A stretch of 36,541 nucleotides of DNA from an uncultured Candidatus Saccharibacteria bacterium (GTDB lineage Bacteria > Patescibacteriota > Minisyncoccia > UBA6257 > UBA9933): the NCBI GenBank assembly GCA_964362385.1, contig CAYIEH010000002.1:1-36541 (forward strand). The letters run 5' to 3'. Shown one piece after another: positions 2,592 through 33,356 of this stretch (its first letter is position 1; each line of letters begins with the position of its first letter). The translations under genes were made by a program, and so were the position numbers. Below the pieces are notes generated by a model. That model was not told the origin of the DNA. It did not search any database and worked only from the letters and a program-made list of their open reading frames with translations.

Positions 2592-2663
2592 GTCCCCGTG
2601 GTGAAACGGATATCATAACAGGCTTCGAACCTGTTGTTGCGAGTTCGAATCTTGCCGGGGACG
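2592..2663 (+). tRNA. tRNA-Arg (anticodon TCG)
   Basis: Manual cloverleaf. Acceptor GTCCCCG/CGGGGAC, D stem GTGA/TCAT, anticodon arm ACAGG-CTTCGAA-CCTGT, T arm GCGAG-TTCGAAT-CTTGC, discriminator G. No encoded CCA. Confidence 0.8.
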
Positions 2664-2705
2664 CCTTGAATAATGCAATTAAATTGCTAAAATGAGAAAG
2701 TTTGC

Positions 2706-2963
2706 GCGCCCGTAGCCATGCCCCGTATACAGCTTTGCTGTTATACCGGGGTCAGTCGGTATTACTAGAACTCACTACCTAAAGCTCATTGTCCGCCCAT
2801 AGCTCAGTTGGTAGAGCAGTTGCCTTTTAAGCAAATGGTCCCAGGTTCGAATCCTGGTGGGCGGACAATGAGCTTTAGAATTAGTTCAGTTGATAGATCC
2901 GTCCGACAACTGGCGGACGGACTCTTAAGCAGATGGTCGAAGGTTCAAGTCCTCCCGGGCGTA
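2706..2963 (+). pseudogene. Broken tRNA-like gene (Lys-CUU-like remnant) interrupted by an insert of about 169 nt that contains tRNA-Lys(UUU)
   Basis: The 5' piece GCGCCCG-TAG (2706-2715) is complementary to the 3' acceptor strand CGGGCGT (2956-2962). The 3' part (2882-2963) runs TAG-TTC-AGTTGATA-GA, then a 24-nt hairpin (2898-2921), then loop remnant CTCTTAA, GCAGA and TGGTC, then T arm GAAGG-TTCAAGT-CCTCC. Its trailer ACATTAAA is the same as after the intact tRNA-Lys(CUU). No 5' anticodon-stem strand can be found, so I call it non-functional. Confidence 0.45.
2793..2865 (+). tRNA. tRNA-Lys (anticodon TTT)
   Basis: CCGCCCA-TA-GCTCAGTTGGTAGAGC-A-GTTGC-CTTTTAA-GCAAA-TGGTC-CCAGG-TTCGAAT-CCTGG-TGGGCGG-A. 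It is collinear with E. coli tRNA-Lys. C1-G72, discriminator A, no CCA. Confidence 0.85.
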
Positions 2964-3012
2964 CATTAAAAAACAATCAATAATCAAAAAATTAGGAATT
3001 TAAATCATATAT

Positions 3013-3281
3013 CCGCCCATAGCTCAGTTGGTAGAGCAGTTGCCTCCGCCAATTTTATCTGAAACGAAGTGAAATAATAAAATTGAGCGCCCCGCACCTT
3101 TTGAGTATAATTTTAATAGCCGCGCGTAGCTCAGTTGGCAGAGCAGGGGCCTCTTAAGCCCAAGGTCGCAGGTTCGAAGCCTGCCGCGCGGACATTAAAT
3201 AAAAGGTGCGGGGTTCTCGATTTTATAACCGCTCGCATATACTCGCGGATAAAATCGGAAGTTCGAATCCTGGTGGGCGGA
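3013..3281 (+). pseudogene. Split copy of tRNA-Lys(UUU): nt 1-33 and nt 53-73 are retained, and the middle 19 nt are replaced by a 215-nt insert carrying tRNA-Lys(CUU)
   Basis: 3013-3045 is identical to 2793-2825 and ends right after U33. 3261-3283 is identical to 2845-2867. The anticodon, 3' anticodon stem, variable loop and 5' T-stem strand are absent (GGAAG in place of CCAGG). Confidence 0.55.
3120..3192 (+). tRNA. tRNA-Lys (anticodon CTT)
   Basis: CCGCGCG-TA-GCTCAGTTGGCAGAGC-A-GGGGC-CTCTTAA-GCCCA-AGGTC-GCAGG-TTCGAAG-CCTGC-CGCGCGG-A. C1-G72, no CCA. Confidence 0.85.
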
Positions 3282-3341
3282 CACTTTTAAAAATCAGTTT
3301 TTAGTTGATTAGTTTTTAGCAAACAGTTAAATTTATAAAGT

Positions 3342-3412
3342 GCGGGTGTAGCACAGTGGCAGTGCTTCTCGTTGCCAACGAGAGGGCGAGGGTTCGATTC
3401 CCTTCACCCGCT
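3342..3412 (+). tRNA. tRNA-Gly (anticodon GCC)
   Basis: GCGGGTG-TA-GCAC-AGTGGC-AGTGC-T-TCTCG-TTGCCAA-CGAGA-GGGC-GAGGG-TTCGATT-CCCTT-CACCCGC-T. No CCA. Confidence 0.85.
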
Positions 3413-7965: not shown

Positions 7966-8502
7966 ATGGAAAAAGATATTCTAAAAATTCTAAATAAATT
8001 AAAAGAAATAAAACCGGATCCCGATTATGCTAAAAAATCGAGGATGTTGATTTTGGTTTCAAAACAGAACGAGTTAAAATCTCTGAATTTTGGTTTTAAA
8101 AATTTCACGGAGATTTTAAGATTTTCGGCGGTTGTCGGTCTCGCCGGCTTTTTATTGCTTTCGCTTTTAGAAGGCGTTTTCTATGTTAATAAAAACTTTT
8201 CTCCCTTAGCGCTTGAGGGCTTAAACCAAAAAAGCCTGATAACGGAAGCTGAAGGAATTAATAACTCTATCCAGATTACGCTTAAAGAAATAAAATATCT
8301 CGACCAATCAAATAAAAAAACCATCAATATGATAAATGAAATTTCAAAAAATGAGCCGGTATATTCAAATATTCCGATGAATTATTCTTCGGCTGAAGCA
8401 ACTTCAACTGAGGATATTGAAAATTTTTTGATAGAGAGCCCGACATCCACAGATATAAACGGACAAAACATTAATTCATTGCTTGATAAAGTGGCGCAGT
8501 AA
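7966..8502 (+). CDS. Putative anti-sigma factor (single-pass membrane protein)
   Basis: Lies immediately downstream of the ECF sigma factor. One central TM helix (FSAVVGLAGFLLLSLLEGVF). The call rests on position and topology only. Confidence 0.45.
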   Translation: MEKDILKILNKLKEIKPDPDYAKKSRMLILVSKQNELKSLNFGFKNFTEILRFSAVVGLAGFLLLSLLEGVFYVNKNFSPLALEGLNQKSLITEAEGINNSIQITLKEIKYLDQSNKKTINMINEISKNEPVYSNIPMNYSSAEATSTEDIENFLIESPTSTDINGQNINSLLDKVAQ

Positions 8503-8505
8503 TAT

Positions 8506-9342
8506 ATGAACAGATTAACTCAAACAATCTTATACGCCATGATCTTGGCCATTATGGCGGTATTTTTATTTAATGGCCGCGTTGCTCTTGCCGCCCCTGA
8601 CCAAAACGACAAAGCTACAAGCACTCAATTAACTCTCACAAGCGGCACAAGCGATTTTTCCGAATTAGACATAGAATCAAGAAAGCAAATCCTGATAAAT
8701 GTCCTGGAATTTTCAAAAAACGAAGTTTCAAGCCTAAAAGACGGCTTATTGAATTTAAAGCTGGATAATGACACCTGGCAACAGATTAGAGACGAATTCC
8801 TGAATAAACTTTCGAGTTTCTCCGATTATTATCAAGGCGCCGAGGATAAAATAAACAGCACCAGCTCCCCGCTCACGATAGATGATGTAAAATCATTAGC
8901 ATCCGCTCTTAAAGATTGGAGGGAAAATACATACAGTCCGGAGTTGGATAAAATAATAAATATGCTCTTGATTTTTGGAACAGATAATCTTCTAAAAACT
9001 ACGCAAAGCAGATTTGATAAAATTTCTTCTGATGTCAAAAAATTAGATAAACAACATTTTGTAAAAACCGATGCTCTAAAAAATTACTTGTCGCAAGCTG
9101 ATAAACATTTAAAGAACATGAAACGTTCAATTGACGGCGCTAAAAAGATTTTTCTTAAGTCGATTATAAATTCCGATGCCAAAAACACTTCTGACAAAGA
9201 TGTTGTAAAAAGCGCTGATATAAAAACTCAAGAAAATTCACAAGATACAATAAGAAAAATGGCGAAAGATTCATTAAAGGAACTGAAAATCACCTACGAA
9301 ATATTTTTCTCGATGAATAATAATATGAAATCCGGTCAGTGA
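8506..9342 (+). CDS. Secreted hypothetical protein (signal peptide, helical repeat-like)
   Basis: N-terminal signal-like sequence MNRLTQTILYAMILAIMAVFLFNGRVALA. It is the third gene of the sigma/anti-sigma unit. I recognise no catalytic motif. Confidence 0.5.
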   Translation: MNRLTQTILYAMILAIMAVFLFNGRVALAAPDQNDKATSTQLTLTSGTSDFSELDIESRKQILINVLEFSKNEVSSLKDGLLNLKLDNDTWQQIRDEFLNKLSSFSDYYQGAEDKINSTSSPLTIDDVKSLASALKDWRENTYSPELDKIINMLLIFGTDNLLKTTQSRFDKISSDVKKLDKQHFVKTDALKNYLSQADKHLKNMKRSIDGAKKIFLKSIINSDAKNTSDKDVVKSADIKTQENSQDTIRKMAKDSLKELKITYEIFFSMNNNMKSGQ

Positions 9343-9485
9343 AGCTCCACGGCTTTACAGCCGTGGCTTCTCTTCACACGCTTCGTCGGGCGAAACCCTC
9401 CGTAGCTCGGAGAGCGAAGGAGGATACCCTCATTCATCCCCGCCTTTACAGGCGGGGCTTTCTCCGCTTCGCGGAGGAGGGTAAA
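9339..9485. repeat. GC-rich structured repeat element of about 150 nt, copy A (intergenic)
   Basis: Hairpins CCACGGCT-TTAC-AGCCGTGG (9347-9366), CCCCGCCT-TTAC-AGGCGGGG (9438-9457) and ctccgc-ttc-gcggag (9462-9476). It is homologous in inverted orientation to 32287-32437. Both strands are free of stop codons. Confidence 0.7.
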
Positions 9486-14060: not shown

Positions 14061-15884
14061 TTATTGCGAATGTAAAACTTTTTTGACAATATCCCAGTAT
14101 CTTGAATCGTTGTATTTTTCCTTCATATAATACCACCATTCGCTTCCCCATAAATAATATTCGGAAAAACCGGTTTCTTTCGCATATTTTATTGTATCAA
14201 TAAAATATTCAGGGCTAAAGAGTTGAACCTGCCGCTCGTAAGAAAGTTTGGGTATGTCTAATTTATCCCACGGCTCTGCCTGAAGTTCGCTTACGATAAA
14301 CGGCTTTTTTTGGTCGTTAATCAAAAAACGCGTTATTTTCTCTTTGAGTTTAAAGTACGACGGGCCGATTGGATATTCAATATTCCCGACCAGCCAGCCG
14401 ACAGAAGGCGGATAAGTTTTCCTGTACATTGTTGTGCCGAACATATCCCCGTATTCAGCCGCCCTATACCACAGGCCGAATTCTCCGCCGTCAGTCAAAA
14501 GTATCGGTCTGTTATCGAGAGATCTCACCAGAGCTATTTCTTTCTTCACGGAATCAACGCTTCTTGTCGGGCAATTTCCGAAAATAAGAAACGGCTCGTT
14601 TTCAATCTGCCAGACGGAGATTGCCGTATTGTTTTTGTAATGCGCCACTAATTCTTTTAAATAAGCCTTAAGCTGATTTTCTTTCTCGTCTCCGGGAAGA
14701 TTTTGAGCCCAATCAGGAATATGGCACTCTGGCCACCTTGGAGTTTTCAGTCCGACAACCAAAATCGCCATGGCGTTGTTTTCTTTTGTTTTCTGAAGAA
14801 GCCAGTCTGTTTCGGAAAAATCAAATTTGCCTTTTTCTTTTTCAATATCTTCCCAATAAGCGACTAACCTTACTTTTTTAGGATGAAAACCGAACATTAT
14901 TTCCTCATAAGTTTTTTGCCAATCAATCCCTAACTGCCTGCTGAATTTCGCCGAATAAGTAATCCCCCATGTTATATTTCTGTTTAAGTCAATTGGCAGG
15001 CTTCGCGCATAATCAATCAGCCCCAAAAGAAAAATTCCGGAAAAAATCAACAATGCCGCGAATATTTTTCCTGCCAATATCCTCCCGCTAAATTTTTCTT
15101 TCAATAAAATCCAGGCAAAAATAAAAATGACTATGTATTTTATGCTCTGAAGCGCGTCAACTAACGCCGGATTTTGAGAAATTTTTATCGCAAAACTGAC
15201 AAGTAAAGACCCGATTCCGGCGTAAAGTCTGTTGGAAAAATAAAGAAAATAATGCTTTATCTTTGGGACGTCAGTATGATGAAATATTCTTTGCCTTATA
15301 TTTCCGGAAAATAAGAACGCTAAGGCAAGTATGGCGCCCCCAACCTTTATCCAGAAAAATCCCGTAACAAAATTCGTTGTTTCAAAAACTACTTTACTTA
15401 AGACATTTGAAAGGCCGAACAAAAACGAGCTGGCTAAAATTAAAATAATTGATATTTTACGGACTTCTTTTTTTTCAATTGCAAACAAAACCAACGATCC
15501 AAGAATCAAAAGCGTGAAAGCGATGTAATCACCCGACCCCAGCCATGAACTCAAAAAAATGAAACCAAAAACCAGCGTAAATATCGGTGAAATTCCGCCG
15601 ATTATCGGCAATGTCTGAGAAGCCTCGCTTAAATAAAGCGCGTAAATCATAAACACCATTGCCAGAATAAAAATAGCTCCCGCCGCAAGGGCTATAAGGA
15701 TGGTATTTAAAGCTGTTAATTGAAAACCGAAGGGTAAAAAAACTACGGCAAATAATCCTAAAACCCCTATCCAAAATGTGTACGTGAAAGGGTCAAAAAA
15801 TTTACGCTTCAGCAACGCTTTGTCAAAAACCGCGGAAGTGCCTAAAATTATTTGGGCTAATACGGCTATAAAAAGCCAGTTCAT
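14061..15884 (-). CDS. Fusion protein: N-terminal EamA/DMT-like 10-TM domain plus C-terminal clan GH-A glycoside hydrolase domain
   Basis: Residues 1 to about 295 are hydrophobic with EamA-like repeats. The C-terminal part has WQIENEP (acid/base NEP) and FIVSELQAEPW (candidate nucleophile E). Confidence 0.6.
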   Translation of the reverse strand: MNWLFIAVLAQIILGTSAVFDKALLKRKFFDPFTYTFWIGVLGLFAVVFLPFGFQLTALNTILIALAAGAIFILAMVFMIYALYLSEASQTLPIIGGISPIFTLVFGFIFLSSWLGSGDYIAFTLLILGSLVLFAIEKKEVRKISIILILASSFLFGLSNVLSKVVFETTNFVTGFFWIKVGGAILALAFLFSGNIRQRIFHHTDVPKIKHYFLYFSNRLYAGIGSLLVSFAIKISQNPALVDALQSIKYIVIFIFAWILLKEKFSGRILAGKIFAALLIFSGIFLLGLIDYARSLPIDLNRNITWGITYSAKFSRQLGIDWQKTYEEIMFGFHPKKVRLVAYWEDIEKEKGKFDFSETDWLLQKTKENNAMAILVVGLKTPRWPECHIPDWAQNLPGDEKENQLKAYLKELVAHYKNNTAISVWQIENEPFLIFGNCPTRSVDSVKKEIALVRSLDNRPILLTDGGEFGLWYRAAEYGDMFGTTMYRKTYPPSVGWLVGNIEYPIGPSYFKLKEKITRFLINDQKKPFIVSELQAEPWDKLDIPKLSYERQVQLFSPEYFIDTIKYAKETGFSEYYLWGSEWWYYMKEKYNDSRYWDIVKKVLHSQ

Positions 15885-18309: not shown

Positions 18310-21300
18310 TTAATTTTTCTTAACGCCGAGCCAGATTGAAATGTTATCAATTTTAGTTTCTGTTTCTGCGCCGAATTTATCCGTTCTTTTGAATTCAATG
18401 GATTTTGCTCCCACGCTTTTTTTAATTCCAGAAGTATATTTATCTATTAAATCTCGCATTCCACTTTCCGCTTCCACATATAAAACGATGGTGTCTTTCG
18501 GCTGGTATCCGGCTTGCTTTCGCAAATCCTGAATCATCCTGGTTAATTCTCTGATTTGGCCTTCATCTTTTAATTCTTGAGTGATTACGATGTCTAATTC
18601 AACATCGGTTGCAATATTTTTATCAAAAACAATTTCTTTCACATTCACTTCGTCTTTAACTAAATTCAATAATTCATTTTTATTTCTTAATTCATAATTC
18701 TTAATTCTTAATTCAAATAATGGTTGTCTCACTTTTATTCCCGCTTCCTGCCGTTTTGCCAAAGCTAATTCTGCGAATTTTCTCGCTTTTTTCATTTCTT
18801 CTATTAAAAGTTTTTCTTTTGCGGCTAATTTCTTTATCAGAGGATAATCTTCCAAATGAACGCTTTCTTTCTTGCTCTGCAACAACTTAAACAAGGCTTC
18901 GGAAATAAAAGGCGTAATCGGCGCTATGGCCTTGGAAAATTCGCTTAAAACAAAGTGGGTGGTCGCAATCGCTGATTTTTGGTCCGTACCGCTATTTTTA
19001 AATCGTTCTCGCGAACGCCTGATATACCATATGGACAAATCCTCCACAAAATCTCCTATCGGCTGGCTGGTTTTGTCCAATTCATATTCATTAATTGCCC
19101 CGCTAATCTGATTGATTGTTTCCTGCAACCGCGTCAAAATCCATTTATCCAACACATTTTTACTATTTGCTATTTGCCTTTTGCCGTTAGCTTTCTTGTC
19201 TGTGTATAGTCTATAAAAACTATAAGAATTCCAAAGGCGCAAAATCGTCTTTTTATAAACATCGTCCACGCCTTTTTCCAAAAAATTCAAACTTTCAGCG
19301 CGCACTGCCGGCGATGATAAAAGATAAAGCCGCAAAGCGTCCGCTCCATACCTGTTTACTAATTCCATAGGGTCGGGATAATTTTTGAGGCGCTTGCTCA
19401 TTTTTTGCCCGTCTTCAGCCAAAATAATTCCATTGGCAATCACGTTTTTATAAGCCGGCTTTCCGAATAGCGCAGAAGACAGCACTAAAAGCGTATAAAA
19501 CCACCCCCTTGTCTGATCAACTCCTTCTGCGATAAATTCCGCCGGAAAATTTTTTTCGAATTTCTTTTTATTTTCAAAAGGATAGTGAGACTGACCATAG
19601 GGCATTGAGCCTGATTCAAACCAGCAGTCAAAAACATCCGGCACTCTGCGCATTTCTCCTCCGCAAACGCATTTAAATTCAACCTCGTCTATAAACGGCC
19701 TGTGCAAATCAAGCTCGTAATTATCGTCATGCGGAACCGGGGTAAAATCAAGTTTTCTGACTTCGCCGGTTTTGATAAAATCGTTTTTCTTTCCTTTTAA
19801 TTCAACCGCTTTTTTTGGATTCGCGCCTTCTGCCGCGGCGAATAAATTCCATATCGGATATTCATGGCTTACTATTAAAATATTTTTGCCGGAATAATTT
19901 CTGTCTGTGTCGTACAAAAAATCGCCGACTCTCTTTTTAAGTTCGGTCAAATTCTCGCCCCCGGGCGGAGTTTTATAAAATTTTTCCTCAATAGAATTAA
20001 AGTACTTATGATAATCTCCGGTCCGTTTTCCTTCAAAAATTCCCACGTTAACTTCCATTAATCTGCGGTCTGGAATAACTTTTTCCCTGCTTAATCCGAT
20101 TTTTTCAGCCACTAAAAAAGCCGTTTGTTTCGTTCTCTCAAACTCGGAATAAAATATAAAATCTATATTTCTATCTTTTAATTTTTGCGCCGTTAATATT
20201 ATCTCTTTTCTGCCTTTGTCTGTTAAAGGATATTTATCGCTGGTTTCGATTTTAGAACTTACCCAATTGTCGCCGTTGCTTTTTGCCCAACCGTGGCGCA
20301 TTACAAAATATCTATTGACGGATTTTTCCGTGCTGTTTTTTATGTCTGCTATGGAACCGATAACTTTCAATTTATGACACTGGTCGCATTTCCAAACTGG
20401 AATCGGCGCGCCCCAAAAACGGCTTCTTGAAATTGACCAATCGCGCGCGTCTTTTATCCAATTGCCAAATCTGCCTTTTTGAAGATGCGGCGGTATCCAA
20501 TTGACCCTTTTATTATTTTCTATCAATCCGCCTTTGCCGTTTTTAATTTCAGTGACTTTCACAAACCACGAAGAGGTCGCGTAATTCAAAAGCGGGGTGT
20601 CGCAGCGCCAGCAATGCGGATATGAATGGTTCATTTTCTCTTTTTTGAAAAGCTTATTGTTATGAGCCAACCATTTTATTATTCCAATATCAGTTGCTGC
20701 CGGGTTATCCTTAGGCTTTGCCTGAAGACCGGCGAAATCCGACGCTTCTTTTTTAATACTGCCATCCATTGCAACGTGCTGAATAAACGGCAATTTATAC
20801 TTATTACCCAGTTGCATATCGTCTTCTCCGAACGCCGGAGCAATGTGAACTATTCCAGTTCCTTCTTCCCTATTCACAAAACCTGCCGGATAAATTTTCC
20901 ATCCATTCTCTCTATTTTTTAAGCCCTCGTCTTTGAAATAGTAATCAAATATCGGTCTATATTGTTTTCCAATGATTTCTTTAGCGCTTATGGTTTTAAT
21001 AATTTCATATTCTTTATCCAACATCTCAAGCCTGTTTTTTGCCAAGATAAACCTTCCTTCTCCCTGTTGCTGAAGATTTTTAAACTTTACAACCGCATTT
21101 TCAATATCCGGATTTACCGCCAATGCCACATTGCCCGGCAAAGTCCACGGAGTCGTAGTCCAAGCCAATAAATATGTCGTTGATTGTTTGTCGTTGGTCG
21201 TTGGTTCTATTAATTCCGCTTTCACATAAACCGAAATATCGTCAATTTCTTTATAATTTTGCGTGACCTCAAAGTTTGATAAGGTCGTTTCGCAGCGCGG

Positions 21301-21843
21301 GCAAATATGCATTGATTTATAACCCTCGTAAATCAATCCTTTGTCAAAAAGTTTTTTAAAAACCCAGAGAACGGATTCGGTATAATCCGCGTCCATGGTC
21401 TTATAATCATTTTCCATATCAACCCAACGCCCGATACGGGGAATTATCTTTTTCCAGTCCCCGGCAAAAGAAAGCACGCGGTCGCGCGCCGCTTTATTGA
21501 ATTTAGCCACTCCTATTTTAAAAATGTCTTTTTTGGTTTTAAGCCCAAGCTCTTCTTCAATTATGTTTTCTATCGGAAGACCGTGGCAGTCCCAACCCCA
21601 AACTCTTTCAACTTTCTTTCCTTTCATTATCTGGTATCTGGGAATTGCGTCTTTTATGATATTAGCCAAAATATGGCCATAATGCGGAAGACCAGTGGCA
21701 AAAGGAGGCCCGTCATAAAAAACATAGTCCCCTTTCGGAGCTTTCTTATTTACCGATTTTTCAAAAATTTTTTTCTCCTGCCAGAATTTAAGGACTTTTT
21801 CCTCAATTTCCTTGGGAATAAAGCTTTTTAAATCGTCAAACAT
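18310..21843 (-). CDS. ileS: Isoleucine--tRNA ligase (type-2-like) with an inserted histidine phosphatase domain
   Basis: HIGH motif (PHYGH), KMSKS motif (KMSKRL), editing-domain TTTPWTLPGN, and DVFDCWFESGSMPYGQ. At 1177 aa it is oversized. The RHG...SHE domain occupies about aa 503-708. Confidence 0.9.
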   Translation of the reverse strand: MFDDLKSFIPKEIEEKVLKFWQEKKIFEKSVNKKAPKGDYVFYDGPPFATGLPHYGHILANIIKDAIPRYQIMKGKKVERVWGWDCHGLPIENIIEEELGLKTKKDIFKIGVAKFNKAARDRVLSFAGDWKKIIPRIGRWVDMENDYKTMDADYTESVLWVFKKLFDKGLIYEGYKSMHICPRCETTLSNFEVTQNYKEIDDISVYVKAELIEPTTNDKQSTTYLLAWTTTPWTLPGNVALAVNPDIENAVVKFKNLQQQGEGRFILAKNRLEMLDKEYEIIKTISAKEIIGKQYRPIFDYYFKDEGLKNRENGWKIYPAGFVNREEGTGIVHIAPAFGEDDMQLGNKYKLPFIQHVAMDGSIKKEASDFAGLQAKPKDNPAATDIGIIKWLAHNNKLFKKEKMNHSYPHCWRCDTPLLNYATSSWFVKVTEIKNGKGGLIENNKRVNWIPPHLQKGRFGNWIKDARDWSISRSRFWGAPIPVWKCDQCHKLKVIGSIADIKNSTEKSVNRYFVMRHGWAKSNGDNWVSSKIETSDKYPLTDKGRKEIILTAQKLKDRNIDFIFYSEFERTKQTAFLVAEKIGLSREKVIPDRRLMEVNVGIFEGKRTGDYHKYFNSIEEKFYKTPPGGENLTELKKRVGDFLYDTDRNYSGKNILIVSHEYPIWNLFAAAEGANPKKAVELKGKKNDFIKTGEVRKLDFTPVPHDDNYELDLHRPFIDEVEFKCVCGGEMRRVPDVFDCWFESGSMPYGQSHYPFENKKKFEKNFPAEFIAEGVDQTRGWFYTLLVLSSALFGKPAYKNVIANGIILAEDGQKMSKRLKNYPDPMELVNRYGADALRLYLLSSPAVRAESLNFLEKGVDDVYKKTILRLWNSYSFYRLYTDKKANGKRQIANSKNVLDKWILTRLQETINQISGAINEYELDKTSQPIGDFVEDLSIWYIRRSRERFKNSGTDQKSAIATTHFVLSEFSKAIAPITPFISEALFKLLQSKKESVHLEDYPLIKKLAAKEKLLIEEMKKARKFAELALAKRQEAGIKVRQPLFELRIKNYELRNKNELLNLVKDEVNVKEIVFDKNIATDVELDIVITQELKDEGQIRELTRMIQDLRKQAGYQPKDTIVLYVEAESGMRDLIDKYTSGIKKSVGAKSIEFKRTDKFGAETETKIDNISIWLGVKKN
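18684..18718. repeat. Heptanucleotide tandem array (ttcttaa-like x5) inside the ileS 3' region
   Basis: Units are ttcttaa, ttcataa, ttcttaa, ttcttaa, ttcaaat. It encodes ELRIKNYELRNKN. Confidence 0.8.
19164..19184. repeat. Heptanucleotide tandem array (tatttgc x2 plus cttttgc) inside ileS
   Basis: Same unit family as 17121-17148. It encodes ANGKRQIANSK. Confidence 0.8.
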
Positions 21844-24825: not shown

Positions 24826-26040
24826 TTAAACCTTAAATCCCTGAATTAAATTATATATCGGTATCAATATTGAAGCAAACAGCAAACCGATGAAAATGCC
24901 GATAAAAGCAATTACAATCGGCTGGATTAATTCACCCAAACGATTCATTAAATCCTCAACTTCTCTGGTGTAAAAACTTGAAACTTTAAATAAAAGCTCT
25001 TCTAATCTTCCGGTTGCTTCTCCAATAGCAACCATCTGGCCGACAAGAGACGGAAAGTAATCGGAACTTTTATTTAAAGCGCTGGAAAGCAATTCCCCTC
25101 CTCTGACGCTCTCGCTTACGTTATGAAGAATATCCCTGTATATGTAGCTTCCTATTGAATGGGCTGTTATTTCTATCGCTTGAGCTATGGGAATTCCGCC
25201 TTTTATTAAAACACTTAAGGAATCGGCAAATCTGGCGACATACATTCTTTTAAACATTCCTCCTAAAATAGGAACCCTGAATAAAATTTCATCTAAAACA
25301 ATTTTGCCCTCATCGGTTTTAAAATAATCTATGATTAAGAAAATAGCCGGGATGATTATCAAAATAATTGCCCACCACCAATTGACAAAAAAAGTTCCGA
25401 CGCCAAAAATCGTTCTTGTATACCACGGCAAATAAACATTTGATTCTTCAAAAACAGGCTTGATGTTCGGCAAAACAATTGTCACCAAAAGAATCACGAC
25501 TGCCACAAAACCAAGAATCAAAAAAGCCGGGTAAATTAAAGCATTGATTGTTTTTGAACGCCACATTCTTTGTTTTTCCAAATAGTCGGCCAGATAATTC
25601 ACCGCTTCTTCCAATCGTCCGGTAATTTCGGCTGACCTGATCATGCTTATGTAAAATTCAGAAAACACTTTATTCTGGCGTTCCAGCGCTTTTGACAGCG
25701 ACAGCCCGCTGTCAATATCAGAAGCTATTTCAAAAATAACTTCCTGTAAAATTTTGTTTTTAGTCTGCTTGTGAAGATTTTTTAAGGAATCGTTCAGGGG
25801 GACTTTTGATTCAAGAAGCGTGGCAAATTGACGCGTAAAAATCATCAGATCCGTCAAGTTCACTTTTTTAAAAATATTCAAAATATTCCCGTACCAATGG
25901 ACAACTTCGGCGCTTTCCAAGCTTAAAATGAATAAATTATGAGAAGTTAAAATATTAACCGCGCCTTCTTTTGAAGCGGCGGTGATGAAACCAACTTGCA
26001 GTTCCCCGTCTTTGGTTCTTGCTTGATATTTAAACTTCAT
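24826..26040 (-). CDS. pilC: Type IV pilus platform protein PilC (GspF family)
   Basis: Two T2SSF repeats, three TM segments, 404 aa. Confidence 0.85.
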   Translation of the reverse strand: MKFKYQARTKDGELQVGFITAASKEGAVNILTSHNLFILSLESAEVVHWYGNILNIFKKVNLTDLMIFTRQFATLLESKVPLNDSLKNLHKQTKNKILQEVIFEIASDIDSGLSLSKALERQNKVFSEFYISMIRSAEITGRLEEAVNYLADYLEKQRMWRSKTINALIYPAFLILGFVAVVILLVTIVLPNIKPVFEESNVYLPWYTRTIFGVGTFFVNWWWAIILIIIPAIFLIIDYFKTDEGKIVLDEILFRVPILGGMFKRMYVARFADSLSVLIKGGIPIAQAIEITAHSIGSYIYRDILHNVSESVRGGELLSSALNKSSDYFPSLVGQMVAIGEATGRLEELLFKVSSFYTREVEDLMNRLGELIQPIVIAFIGIFIGLLFASILIPIYNLIQGFKV

Positions 26041-26060
26041 AAAGTATTCGCGATTGCTCT

Positions 26061-27134
26061 TTAACTTCTTTCCAATAAAATCCTCAATTCGCTCGGATTT
26101 AATGAATAAAGCTCCGCTTTTTCTAAAGAAATTTCTTTGGTTTTCACCAGAGTTACCAACGAGTGATTCAAATTTATCATTCCTTCCTGCATGGAAGTTT
26201 CAATAACCAGATCAATTTGATAAGTTTTTCTCTCCCGAATGAGATTGCGAATCGCGGGATTGGTAATCATTATTTCGCATGCCGGAATTCTTCCTCCCTC
26301 AACCCGCGGTATCAGACGTTCGGAAATTATTCCCACAAGTGTTGCCGCAAGCTGAGAAGCAATCTGACTTTGCTGCTGAGGCGGAAAACTGTCAATAATT
26401 CTGTCTATGGTTTGAGATGCGGAATTCGTATGCAAGGTGGAAAAAACCAAATGTCCGGTTTCTGCGGCTGTCATCGCGGTGGAAATAGATTCTTGATCCC
26501 TCATTTCACCTATCATAATCACATCGGGGTCCTGCCTTAATAAAGATTTTAAAGCCGAGTGGAAATCCAATGAATCAATTTTTACTTCTCTCTGGGAAAT
26601 AATTGATTTGTCCTGAGTAAAAACATATTCAATCGGATCTTCAATAGTGATGACGTGATCTGTCCTTGCGTGGTTAATTTCGTCAATTAAAGCGGCGAGC
26701 GTTGAAGACTTGCCGTGTCCCGCCGGACCTACCGCCAAAATAAAACCCTGGGAAAGTTTAGTAAAATCATGGAGAATAGGCGGCAAATTCAGTTCCTCAA
26801 TGGTTTTGACCTGAGCCGGAATCAGACGCAACGCCGCAGCCATATAACCCTTCTGATAAAAAACATTGACGCGAAACCGGGCTTTGTCTTCAAAGGTATA
26901 AGAAAAATCAATTTCCTTTTCCTTTAAAAAAATCTCCTTCTGCTCCGGTGAAAGAAGCGATAAAACCAATCCCTCAATCGCCTGAGGAGTTAAAATAGAT
27001 TCTTTTTGAAGTGGAATTAAAATTCCGTCAATGCGGAGCGTTGGATATCTGCCTACCGCAAGATGAAGATCAGAAGCGCTCTGGCGCGCCGCTGTCAGCA
27101 ATAAATCATTAAGTTGTTGTTTATGGTCTGCCAT
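26061..27134 (-). CDS. pilT: Twitching-motility retraction ATPase PilT
   Basis: Walker A GPAGHGKSST, Asp box, Walker B IMIGEMRD, His box TLHTNSA, and no N-terminal GspE_N domain. The track start 27170 is TTG; ATG 27134 (MADHKQQLNDLL) is preferred. Confidence 0.85.
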   Translation of the reverse strand: MADHKQQLNDLLLTAARQSASDLHLAVGRYPTLRIDGILIPLQKESILTPQAIEGLVLSLLSPEQKEIFLKEKEIDFSYTFEDKARFRVNVFYQKGYMAAALRLIPAQVKTIEELNLPPILHDFTKLSQGFILAVGPAGHGKSSTLAALIDEINHARTDHVITIEDPIEYVFTQDKSIISQREVKIDSLDFHSALKSLLRQDPDVIMIGEMRDQESISTAMTAAETGHLVFSTLHTNSASQTIDRIIDSFPPQQQSQIASQLAATLVGIISERLIPRVEGGRIPACEIMITNPAIRNLIRERKTYQIDLVIETSMQEGMINLNHSLVTLVKTKEISLEKAELYSLNPSELRILLERS

Positions 27135-31917: not shown

Positions 31918-32808
31918 ATGTTTCTGTTAAAAATTAAAAACATTTCTCTGGACATTCTTTTCCCGCCTCTTTGTCTTGGATGTCAAAAACACCTCAAGCG
32001 CGACAAAGACAAAAGCTATGAATTTCTGTGCAGAGATTGTATGTCCTTAATTAAGATTAATAATACTCTTTTTTGCCCCATCTGCCAATTAAGACTTCCC
32101 GAAAATAAAAAAATATGCAACCACAGCAAAGAAGATTTTAAGGAATTTCCCTTTCTTTTGGGTCCGGCAACCGACTACGGCAATCCCATTGTCCAAAATC
32201 TGATCCATTACTATAAATATAAGAGCTTTGAAAATCTGGCTCCGTTTCTGGGAGAATTAATGATAAATTATCTGAATTTTTTAAATTATCCGCCTTCGCA
32301 GAAGACCACGGGCGTAAGCCCGCGGATGAATACGATAGGCGGATTCTCCACGGCTCTAAGAATGGAGGAAGATGCTTCGGCGGATTCCGCCGAAGAAACG
32401 AAAGATGCCGCTGCTGTAAGCCCATGGAGGCTTCATAATTCTTTCATTTCAAATTTTTCTCCGATTGTGGTTTTTATTCCTCTCCATCATTCACGCGAAA
32501 GAAAACGCGGATTTAACCAGGCAAAACTTTTGGCGGAAATCGTTGCAAAAAATTTTAATCTGGAATTAAAAAATGTTTTAATGCGCGTTAAGAACACTCC
32601 GCCTCAGGCGCAGGCGGAAAACCGCGAAAAAAGGCGAGAAAATCTTTTTGGCGCTTTTACGATAATTGACCCCGATGAAATAAAAAATAAAAATATAATT
32701 TTAATTGACGATGTTTATACTTCCGGCGCCACGATGAGTGAAGCGGCAAGAGTTTTAAAATCGCGCGGCGCAAGAAAAATAATCGCGCTGGTAGCGGCGA
32801 AAGCGTGA
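31918..32808 (+). CDS. comFC: ComF family protein (ComFC, phosphoribosyltransferase-type) with an in-frame GC-rich insertion
   Basis: N-terminal Cys motifs (CLGC...CRDC, CPIC) and PRT motif IILIDDVYTSGATM. The insert is at about 32287-32437. Confidence 0.8.
   Translation: MFLLKIKNISLDILFPPLCLGCQKHLKRDKDKSYEFLCRDCMSLIKINNTLFCPICQLRLPENKKICNHSKEDFKEFPFLLGPATDYGNPIVQNLIHYYKYKSFENLAPFLGELMINYLNFLNYPPSQKTTGVSPRMNTIGGFSTALRMEEDASADSAEETKDAAAVSPWRLHNSFISNFSPIVVFIPLHHSRERKRGFNQAKLLAEIVAKNFNLELKNVLMRVKNTPPQAQAENREKRRENLFGAFTIIDPDEIKNKNIILIDDVYTSGATMSEAARVLKSRGARKIIALVAAKA
32287..32437. repeat. GC-rich structured repeat element of about 150 nt, copy B (inside comFC, inverted relative to copy A)
   Basis: Hairpins CCACGGGC-GTAA-GCCCGCGG (32306-32325) and cttcggcgg-att-ccgccgaag (32375-32395). 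It shares the GGATGAAT core and the terminal motif gctgtaagcccatggaggcttca with the reverse complement of 9339-9485. Confidence 0.7.
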
Positions 32809-33169: not shown

Positions 33170-33356
33170 ACGAAATTTCCGTGAAACTTTCAGGTAATTA
33201 ATTTATTGCGCGGCTCGCCCCGTAAGAAATAAAGCGTTTGCCGTCAAAGAAGATGAAATCTTGGAATCTTTTAAAAACATTATTCTTAATGAATGACCTG
33301 GTTTGTGCCCGCAGAATGCTTTTTCGGCAATTTCCTACGAGGCTTGCTGAACTTAA

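Follow-up and report, generated by a model that had tools for sequence, protein, structure and literature searches.

Why should a competence gene lying in AT-rich DNA contain, within its reading frame, a GC-rich block that is dense in hairpins? The question is raised by comFC in a 36,541-nucleotide (nt) stretch of DNA (the window; contig CAYIEH010000002.1, positions 1 to 36,541, assembly GCA_964362385.1) from an uncultured “Candidatus Saccharibacteria” bacterium. The original prediction for this DNA placed the block at 32287 to 32437, related it to an intergenic element elsewhere in the window (copy A), and proposed that an element acting at the nucleic acid level is translated through, to be either tolerated as a loop or removed or regulated at the RNA level. 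Our analysis indicates that the block (copy B) is probably a protein-less, nonautonomous transposable element with ends like those of IS608 in the IS200/IS605 group of insertion sequences (IS), i.e., a palindrome-associated transposable element (PATE) resembling a MITE (miniature inverted-repeat transposable element). Coordinates are collected in Table 1.

Insertion polymorphism in comFC

The gene adjoins a type IV pilus/competence cluster (PilM, PilN, T2SSE, and T2SSF). Its product is 296 amino acids (aa) long with the insert, and 247 aa would be expected without it; the 520 homologues are mostly 235 to 255 aa in length and named ComF. The best named relatives of this ComFC are from Wolfebacteria or Patescibacteria, which marks the source as a “Candidatus Wolfebacteria”-like bacterium of the candidate phyla radiation (CPR), and contigs that are nearly identical to the window come from Hainich groundwater well H43. 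GC content is 39% in the window as a whole, compared with 57% in the block. The translation reads ...INYLNFLNY, continues through 49 residues (PPSQ...WRLH), and resumes with NSFISNFSPIVVFIPLHHSRERKRGFNQ (in the longer downstream stretch, NSFISNFSPIVVFIPLH...).

The closest relative of this ComFC (P0002) is encoded on a contig, L001 (GCA_041642995.1), whose DNA is 99% identical to that of the window over 12.5 kb. This contig is without exactly 147 nt, reading AAATTAT^AATTCT where the window reads AAATTAT[CCGCC...GGCTTCAT]AATTCT, and ambiguity is limited to the final AT. The in-frame insertion that had been predicted is thus real, although its limits are 32290 to 32436 instead of those first given. 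This is the one empty site available for the analysis of the whole family described below. The filled allele is also found in an independent assembly (ENA ERZ1292632; L290), which is 99.9% identical to the window and encodes the same protein, so the insert is not a misassembly. It is missing from about 65 aligned ComFC orthologues, nearly all of which have a helix ending in ...YL.. that leads straight into a ..IVVPIPLH strand. The original prediction was thus right in expecting the insert to be absent from orthologues.

Past the copy B junction, positions 32437 to 32456 of the window differ from positions 8451 to 8470 of L001 by four substitutions (+8, +9, +14, and +19), all of which are nonsynonymous (NSFISNF versus NSYILNL), while the surrounding kilobases differ by about 1.3%. 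This cluster suggests either an old haplotype separated by the insertion or an adjustment of the linker at the protein level; escape from a guide RNA is a possible but unsupported reading. Elsewhere, the two contigs differ by an intergenic replacement (window 26038 to 26070 versus L001 2044 to 2230), in which the 187 nt of L001 contain a CCCCGCCGTAGCTTTAGGCGAAGGCGGG hairpin module resembling the element interior, and by 78 AT-rich nt at 33252 to 33328 that are extra in the window. Beyond the range of the window, L001 also contains a third, degenerate copy of the family (about 14935 to 15094, minus strand), which reads GATTAT/CCGCCTTCGCAGAAGACTACGG...AGGCTTCAT/TTGCG and in which the right hairpin is missing.

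The wider family and its IS608-type ends

Compared directly, copies A and B are only modestly similar (74% column identity by MAFFT; 68 nt at 71% identity, E = 0.05, by blastn), and the case for their homology therefore rests on the wider family. Profile hidden Markov models (HMMs) were built for each end using only elements that come from other phyla, with the window copies excluded, and they match exactly at the termini of copy B (left, E = 1e-15; right, E = 3.6e-6) and of copy A (left, E = 4.7e-10; right, E = 6.8e-10). In addition, copy B aligns without gaps over 147/147 nt with elements in other bacteria and phyla (about 80% identity, E = 1e-34). The proposed relationship to an intergenic copy in inverted orientation is confirmed by these matches, with copy A now bounded at 9339 and 9480, and the view of the block as a nucleic acid-level repeat and not a protein domain also holds.

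A 30-nt degenerate left-end pattern taken from the region common to copies A and B (AGAARRCCNCGNNNGTAANNNNNNGGATGA) matches only those two copies in the window, where 0.00 matches would be expected by chance. Among species-representative genomes, it was found in at least 119 stretches, compared with a chance expectation of about 4 (18 fixed and 2 twofold positions, 596 Gb, both strands). The right-end pattern was found in at least 120 metagenome stretches, and 89 right ends have a left-end partner 42 to 261 nt upstream. More than 240 copies were recovered in total. The hosts include Omnitrophota, Planctomycetia, Deltaproteobacteria/Syntrophobacter, Binatia, Nitrospirota, Ignavibacteria, Elusimicrobia, Firestonebacteria, and Auribacterota and, from the CPR, Kerfeld-, Uhr-, Gottesman-, Davies-, Roizman-, Woese-, and Komeilibacteria and Saccharibacteria; binning error may underlie some of these bin labels. 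About 25 identical 126-nt copies are present in Omnitrophota RBG_13_46_9. Many matches lie at contig ends, as expected of repeats that break assemblies. The strict left-end pattern had no match in viral contigs, and a canonical element had none in plasmid and phage collections (blastn). A looser 16-base pattern gave 46 matches in viral contigs, which were rejected because all were chance matches within a conserved phage gene that has no hairpin.

Copies are found in either orientation relative to genes and are mostly intergenic, with 9/66 lying within long open frames. At least 118 annotated “hypothetical proteins” (39 to 88 aa; P0121 to P0238) are translations of the family in one frame. Most members have one or two open antisense frames, a by-product of their GC-richness; the antisense open reading frame (ORF) at 32138 to 32425, to which attention had been drawn, does exist and is such a by-product. 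We found no account of such elements in Patescibacteria or Omnitrophota in the literature that was searched, and the family appears to be undescribed.

The top strand of the family corresponds to the plus strand for copy B and to the minus strand for copy A. Along it, the left end consists of host (T)TTA[C/T], followed by CCsCCTTCGC, AGAA[R][R], an 8-bp hairpin with a GTAA loop, and ATGAAT. The next segment pairs with the first 10 nt (helix P1) and is followed by anywhere from zero to several GC-rich hairpin modules. The right end consists of G[A/G][A/T][G/A], a second 8-bp hairpin, and [A/G]GCT[T/C]CA[C/T], beyond which the host flank is unconserved. Elements are 88 to 246 nt long and encode no protein. 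The smallest (L059, 88 nt) is a left end fused to a right end, which indicates that the interior is dispensable cargo.

End architecture was counted in 50 unique elements, which are related sequences, so that the cases are not all independent events. In these elements and in copies A and B, terminal inverted repeats are absent, the two ends (CCGCCTTCGC... and ...GGAGCTTCAY) being different. On the 5′ side, 26 elements are flanked by TTAC, 21 by TTAT, and 3 by another tetranucleotide (TTAY in 47/50), with conservation spanning 4 to 5 nt (TTTAY); the 3′ flank is unconserved, and the target is not duplicated. At the left end, cleavage would occur 16 nt 5′ of the hairpin foot; at the right end, a distance of 8 nt (9 in some elements) separates the hairpin foot from the terminus on its 3′ side.

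In IS608, cleavage on the left takes place at a TTAC that is not part of the element and is situated 19 nt 5′ of the foot of the left hairpin, whereas the right cleavage site (TCAA) is internal, 10 nt 3′ of the foot of the right hairpin (PMC3201880). These sites are not read by protein; each pairs with four guide bases located 5′ of the hairpin foot (the left guide, G_L, being AAAG), and positions 1 and 2 of the right guide enter into base triples with the two nucleotides that follow the right hairpin foot on its 3′ side (PMC3201880). In the present family, C-type left guides (AAAG or AAGG) go with TTAC and T-type left guides (AAGA or AAAA) go with TTAT. The fourth base of the left guide and the last base of the left cleavage site (G_L4:C_L-1) are G:C in 26 of the 50 elements and A:T in 20, with 4 mismatches. 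At the right end, where C_R-1 is the element's final base, G_R4:C_R-1 pairs are G:C in 22 elements and A:T in 17, G_R2:C_R-4 is A:T in 26 and G:C in 14, and right guide position 1 forms G:C with cleavage position -3 in 44/50; cleavage position -4 also covaries with the base that directly follows the right hairpin foot, a position at which IS608 forms base triples. All four right-end combinations (TCAC/GATG, CCAC/GGTG, TCAT/GATA, and CCAT/GGTA) are seen with matching guides, so the signal of covariation does not simply reflect two clades.

Pairing of the left hairpin is kept by compensatory changes at stem positions 3 and 6 to 8, with exchanges among G:C, C:G, and A:T at positions 6 to 8. Helix P1 is likewise preserved with different sequences in different subfamilies (L051 to L289). 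To our knowledge, this helix has not been described for IS608; it may bring the left cleavage site next to its guide. As far as sequence can tell, the family bears the mark of “peel-and-paste” transposition, in which a Y1 HUH transposase acts on single-stranded DNA. The elements would move as single-stranded DNA, with the transposase (TnpA) being supplied in trans and binding the subterminal hairpins. The four guide bases 5′ of each hairpin would pair with the cleavage tetranucleotide, and the element would be excised seamlessly and then pasted 3′ of a matching TTAC or TTAT without duplication of the target. One copy would have landed in this way after the TTAT of comFC codon Tyr124, to be read through as a 49-residue loop between the zinc-ribbon and PRT (phosphoribosyltransferase) domains, with decay of its right-end hairpin coming later.

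Copy B comprises 49 stop-free codons (ComFC residues 125 to 173) lying exactly between the codons for Tyr124 and Asn. One of its three sense frames is open, namely, that of comFC, and the comFC frame stays open because copy B is 147 nt long and stop-free in that frame. The left end is canonical: guide AAGA goes with target TTAT, with the expected A:T pair. The left hairpin has one A.C mismatch, and the left-end module folds as DNA at −14.3 kcal/mol (z = −3.4). At the right end, guide GATG faces TCAT with a G:T mismatch, the hairpin has about five substitutions, and the DNA fold (−3.8 kcal/mol, z = −0.04) is no better than that of shuffled sequences, compared with −9.3 kcal/mol for the canonical element L135 and −12.1 kcal/mol for copy A. 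Subterminal hairpins are accordingly present at both ends of copy A but only at the left end of copy B. The block as a whole folds better than shuffled sequence (z = −3.5 for the plus strand and −6.0 for the minus strand), and both hairpins named in the original prediction are present where it had put them (32306 to 32325 and 32375 to 32395). A GCTTCGGCGGATTCCGCCGAAG module of the interior recurs in L064, L074, L082, and L167. Given the decay of the right-end hairpin, copy B is probably immobile, a fossil that can probably no longer be excised and that persists in the population as a presence/absence polymorphism. The empty allele of L001 is most simply taken as ancestral.

Table 1. Positions of copies A and B, their parts, and related features (window coordinates unless another contig is named)
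Feature	Position	Strand	Basis
Copy A, 142-nt intergenic family member, both ends intact	9339-9480	-	Left-end pattern match; end HMMs; folds
Copy A left hairpin	9438-9457	-	
Copy A right hairpin	9347-9366	-	
Copy A tail	9339-9346	-	
Copy A target TTAC (GTAA on the + strand)	9481-9484	-	Sequence; family 5′-flank consensus
TGA stop of ORF 8506-9342, provided by the copy A right terminus (reverse complement of TCAC = GTGA)	9340-9342	+	
comFC (double zinc ribbon + type I phosphoribosyltransferase)	31918-32808	+	ORF list; Pfam DZR_2, Pribosyltran
Copy B, 147-nt putative nonautonomous IS200/IS605-type element (PATE)	32290-32436	+	Presence/absence versus L001; end HMMs; about 80% identity over 147/147 nt to other phyla
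Target/left cleavage tetranucleotide TTAT (C_L), host owned, outside the element	32286-32289	+	Present in L001 empty site
Left guide (G_L) AAGA, 4 nt 5′ of left hairpin foot	32302-32305	+	Last A matches T of TTAT
Left subterminal hairpin (IP_L), CCACGGGC-GTAA-GCCCGCGG	32306-32325	+	Sequence and fold
Left-end module: helix P1 (CCGCCTTCGC with ACGATAGGCGG) enclosing guide, hairpin, and ATGAAT	32290-32342	+	
Internal cargo hairpin CTTCGGCGG-ATT-CCGCCGAAG, perfect 9 bp	32375-32395	+	Module common to many family members
Right end, decayed: GATG guide, remnant of the hairpin (CCGCTGCTGTAAGCCCATGG), and tail AGGCTTCAT with C_R TCAT at its end	32404-32436	+	Right-end HMM, E = 3.6e-6
In-frame element of UvrA-like ORF, “Ca. 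Woesebacteria” RIFCSPLOWO2_01_FULL_39_10 (MGHC01000009.1)	L151 2373-2502		Insert reads NEAPRTDAQGIFSLLLRRERNPSEAEISSHSSTGLRPRFSAKGD

Effects on ComFC and other reading frames

AlphaFold2, run with a 69-sequence alignment, gives a predicted local distance difference test (pLDDT) score of 80 to 95 for the helix at residues 105 to 123 and for the PRT core at 183 to 296, compared with <50 and no secondary structure over about residues 127 to 174 (127 to 158 and 160 to 174). The insert sits between this helix and the strand at 183 to 186, in the linker of the zinc ribbon and the PRT core, and the disordered loop for which structure prediction had been suggested as a check is what the model gives. 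The model of the C-terminal domain matches PRT folds and Helicobacter pylori ComF (7p0h; Foldseek, rank 37); ComF was not found by sequence searches of the PDB. In the alignment of orthologues, all invariant ComFC residues are kept in the insert-bearing protein. The orthologues differ in length at the position of the insert, and other Wolfebacteria have unrelated GC-rich palindromic inserts of 45 to 60 residues in the same linker, which indicates that the site is permissive. The copy B segment is probably translated as a 49-residue, probably disordered loop of ComFC, and we infer that ComFC function is retained.

Two of the inserts in the linkers of other Wolfebacteria (L002 10346 to 10549 and L004 10382 to 10558) each have an 18-bp closing stem. 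They were considered as possible members of the family and rejected, since neither the left-end nor the right-end HMM gives a match. A second ComFC insert, in the zinc-ribbon region (FITAQINVNNPRLSASNVRINPRKSAS), is found in P0020, P0037, and P0043.

A second in-frame case is a 129-nt family member lying antisense in a UvrA-like ORF of about 1071 aa (Table 1). A peptide-profile search for other in-frame hosts returned only ORFs of 39 to 88 aa and did not return the ComFC of the window itself, so this search is blind to long hosts.

The family may also touch reading frames at their ends. Copy A, which folds better than shuffled sequence (z = −6 to −7), provides the stop codon of an adjacent ORF (Table 1). 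No genome with an empty site was found for this copy, and two further assemblies both carry it. To judge from the sequence, the empty site CA^GTAA would have put a TAA at the same codon, in which case the protein encoded by ORF 8506-9342 would have been unchanged by the insertion. Among TCAY-type copies, the terminal TGA is precisely the stop codon of an antisense ORF of 80 or more codons in 11/51, compared with 6 and 3 in the other two frames, which fits with a target (TTAY) whose reverse complement is RTAA. At about 1100 to 1269 of L280 there is an element closely related to copy A (78% identical over 122 nt and sharing its CCTCCTCCGCGAAGCGGAG left end), where the flanks have a GC content of 48%, which hints at transfer between unrelated hosts.

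Other features of these contigs can be noted briefly. A related Wolfebacteria contig (L002 10892 to 12751) has a diversity-generating retroelement, comprising an RVT_1 reverse transcriptase and bAvd, directly downstream of comFC. At the gathering threshold, the only Rfam matches in the window are four tRNAs, the genes for which are clustered at 2592 to 3412 on the plus strand. The window also encodes a 1176-aa class I aminoacyl-tRNA synthetase (18310 to 21843, minus strand; tRNA-synt_1 and Anticodon_1) with a histidine-phosphatase domain (His_Phos_1, residues 512 to 681) inserted into its catalytic domain.

Mobilization, alternative explanations, and known systems

The family has, as far as was tested at the level of sequence, every feature of an IS200/IS605 element, with a cognate TnpA being the one that is outstanding. 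A Y1 transposase was not found in the window or in about 1.6 Mb flanking some 250 copies (about 0.9 Mb of genome and 0.74 Mb of metagenome loci), a search that was approximate and that used HUH/Y motif regular expressions and tblastn with IS200 and IS608 TnpA query sequences. Neither TnpB nor other cargo was found in the same DNA, and no pair of ends encloses cargo: when ends separated by more than 300 nt were sought, a single distant pair (L098) came up, and this pair and all 34 “solo” right ends were rejected because they proved to be short elements with variant left ends. Since no transposase, TnpB, or cargo was found, we can only infer that the elements would be mobilized in trans by a Y1 transposase. 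These negative results weigh against the interpretation of copy B as a PATE, as do the relatedness of the 50 elements counted above and the dead right hairpin and G:T right guide pair of copy B, which are not what one would expect had the insertion that separates the 99%-identical strains been very recent. GC skew is negative throughout the window and is uninformative on replication-strand bias; the two copies lie in opposite orientations.

Alternatives to a PATE that is tolerated within a working ComFC have to be weighed against this background. It is unlikely, though not far-fetched, that the insert inactivated ComFC and left a dispensable allele or a pseudogene of recent origin, kept open by the chance of receiving 147 stop-free nt. 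With two of the three sense frames closed, openness could be a filter on surviving insertions and not a property of the element; there are four nonsynonymous differences within 20 nt 3′ of the junction, and the empty allele coexists in the population. However, the right end has had time to decay and yet no frameshift or stop has arisen, the same protein being found in two assemblies. All of the invariant residues are intact, the site is a linker of variable length in which other Wolfebacteria bear inserts of similar size, and the AlphaFold2 model leaves both domains folded. A different view of the family itself, which we consider very unlikely, is that its members are repeats of the repetitive extragenic palindromic (REP) or REPIN type, handled by a domesticated REP-associated tyrosine transposase (RAYT; TnpA_REP), and are not true IS derivatives. 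The chemistry would be of the same HUH/Y1 type, the elements are high-copy GC-rich hairpins with no transposase adjacent, and REP recognition likewise uses hairpin-plus-flank determinants (PMC8266576). Against this view, the two ends are distinct and in direct orientation, with a left target and an internal right cleavage site as in IS608, and do not form inverted REP pairs or arrays of bacterial interspersed mosaic elements (BIMEs); they have no GTAG or CGTC 5′ tag, and insertion is into unique sites, coding sequence included.

Explanations that place the function in RNA fare poorly. PATEs have been reported often to encode omegaRNAs (PMC10055086), and copy B could be one that carries a guide RNA (omega/reRNA) for a TnpB/IscB nuclease; with transcription running across its right end, it would target empty TTAT sites and their 3′ flank and so bias its own inheritance. 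The size of about 150 nt and the heavy structure would suit such a role, and the empty and filled alleles differ at +8, +9, +14, and +19, where a guide would pair. This is nevertheless highly improbable in our judgment: no TnpB/IscB gene was found near any copy, there is no match in Rfam, the interior is not conserved and is missing from members of 88 to 104 nt, and the flank differences, being nonsynonymous, are equally explained by change at the protein level or by an old haplotype. We attach scarcely any probability to the idea that the comFC mRNA contains a small intron or ribozyme that is taken out of it or a cis-regulatory structure that governs it, which is the RNA-level outcome allowed by the original prediction and is here discarded. 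The strong predicted RNA fold and the GNRA-like GTAA loops are what such an element might have, but no Rfam family was found for copies A and B even at E ≤ 10, nothing better than E = 0.2 was obtained, and no match came anywhere near the gathering scores. The family is oriented either way relative to genes and is mostly intergenic, and the conserved features, those of single-strand DNA transposon ends, include the host-flank TTAY, as would suit integration of DNA but not a role in RNA; an excised intron, moreover, would not need to be in frame and stop-free. Finally, one might take the ambiguous AT of the junction for the 2-bp target-site duplication of a conventional MITE moved by a DDE transposase, a reading with almost nothing to recommend it. 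The duplication is only apparent, since target TTAT and terminus TCAT have the same last two bases, and these covary with guide bases inside the element. Terminal inverted repeats are absent, and conservation is found in the 5′ flank (TTTAY) and not in the 3′ flank.

If copy B is taken as a PATE, a broader picture can be drawn, which we regard as no better than tentative and on balance doubtful. The window copies would belong to an undescribed superfamily of PATEs that spans phyla (CPR, Omnitrophota, Planctomycetota, Desulfobacterota, and Nitrospirota) and shares the IS608 code, with a transposase that is not nearby and may act from another replicon, a phage, or a host cell. The TTAY target (RTAA) would lead to landing on TAA stops, with TGA being regenerated, and copies would occasionally end up inside core genes such as comFC and uvrA, where they would form disordered linkers. 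A possible but unsupported extension has the right end and the 3′ flank serving as a guide RNA, with the substitutions of the empty allele representing escape from homing.

The family accounts for noise in public protein sets in the form of GC-rich “hypothetical proteins” and for odd insertions in proteins of streamlined CPR bacteria. Its guide/cleavage covariation makes the chemistry of transposition readable from sequence alone, and its distribution points to circulation of single-strand transposon derivatives across very distant uncultivated phyla. The linker of ComFC is marked as a site that tolerates about 50 extra residues. Should the missing transposase be found, the family would offer many natural variants of the IS608 targeting code; should closed genomes have no tnpA with these ends, mobilization in trans from a phage or host would be likely.

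Protein-less derivatives of IS200/IS605 elements are already known as PATEs in Haloquadratum (PMC3119063) and Geobacillus (PMC10055086). With IS608, other IS200/IS605 elements, and their PATE derivatives, the present family has in common asymmetric ends without inverted repeats and with subterminal hairpins, insertion 3′ of a TTAC-like tetranucleotide without duplication, pairing of the cleavage site with a 4-nt guide 5′ of each hairpin, seamless empty sites, and a short, geneless element; the C-type left end (AAAG/TTAC) is identical to that of IS608. However, the spacings are 16 and 8 nt here, compared with 19 and 10 nt in IS608; the stems are perfect over 8 bp with GTAA loops, whereas IS608 has an imperfect palindrome with an extrahelical T; and helix P1 is an additional helix around the left guide and hairpin. 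The present family also differs from both IS608 and PATEs in having an interior of interchangeable GC-rich hairpin modules, in occurring in many uncultivated phyla, and in that no cognate tnpA or tnpB was found. The nonautonomous IS605 elements that bear omegaRNAs for TnpB/IscB are similar in size range, in heavy structure, and in the IS200/IS605-type location at the right end, but in the present family no nuclease gene was found, the scaffold is unconserved, and minimal members have no interior.

REP/REPIN-RAYT systems likewise combine GC-rich hairpins with presumed HUH/Y1 single-strand chemistry and a transposase encoded elsewhere. REPs, however, are 20 to 40 nt long, have a GTAG or CGTC tag, form inverted pairs or BIME arrays, and are extragenic, whereas the present family has distinct ends in direct orientation and a host-derived TTAY. 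The nearest parallel to the residence of copy B in a gene is provided by the Rickettsia palindromic elements (RPEs), palindromic repeats of about 150 bp that are described (Ogata et al., 2000, summarized in PMC10969869) as lying in frame in housekeeping genes and being read through at positions compatible with the fold. RPEs have no sequence relationship to the present family; their mechanism, in the same account, is not established, and nearly half of them are intragenic, whereas the present family is mostly intergenic and its end chemistry can be read from sequence. Thus, the type of mechanism and the in-frame phenomenon were both known already, and it is the family of elements joining the two in comFC that appears to be undescribed.

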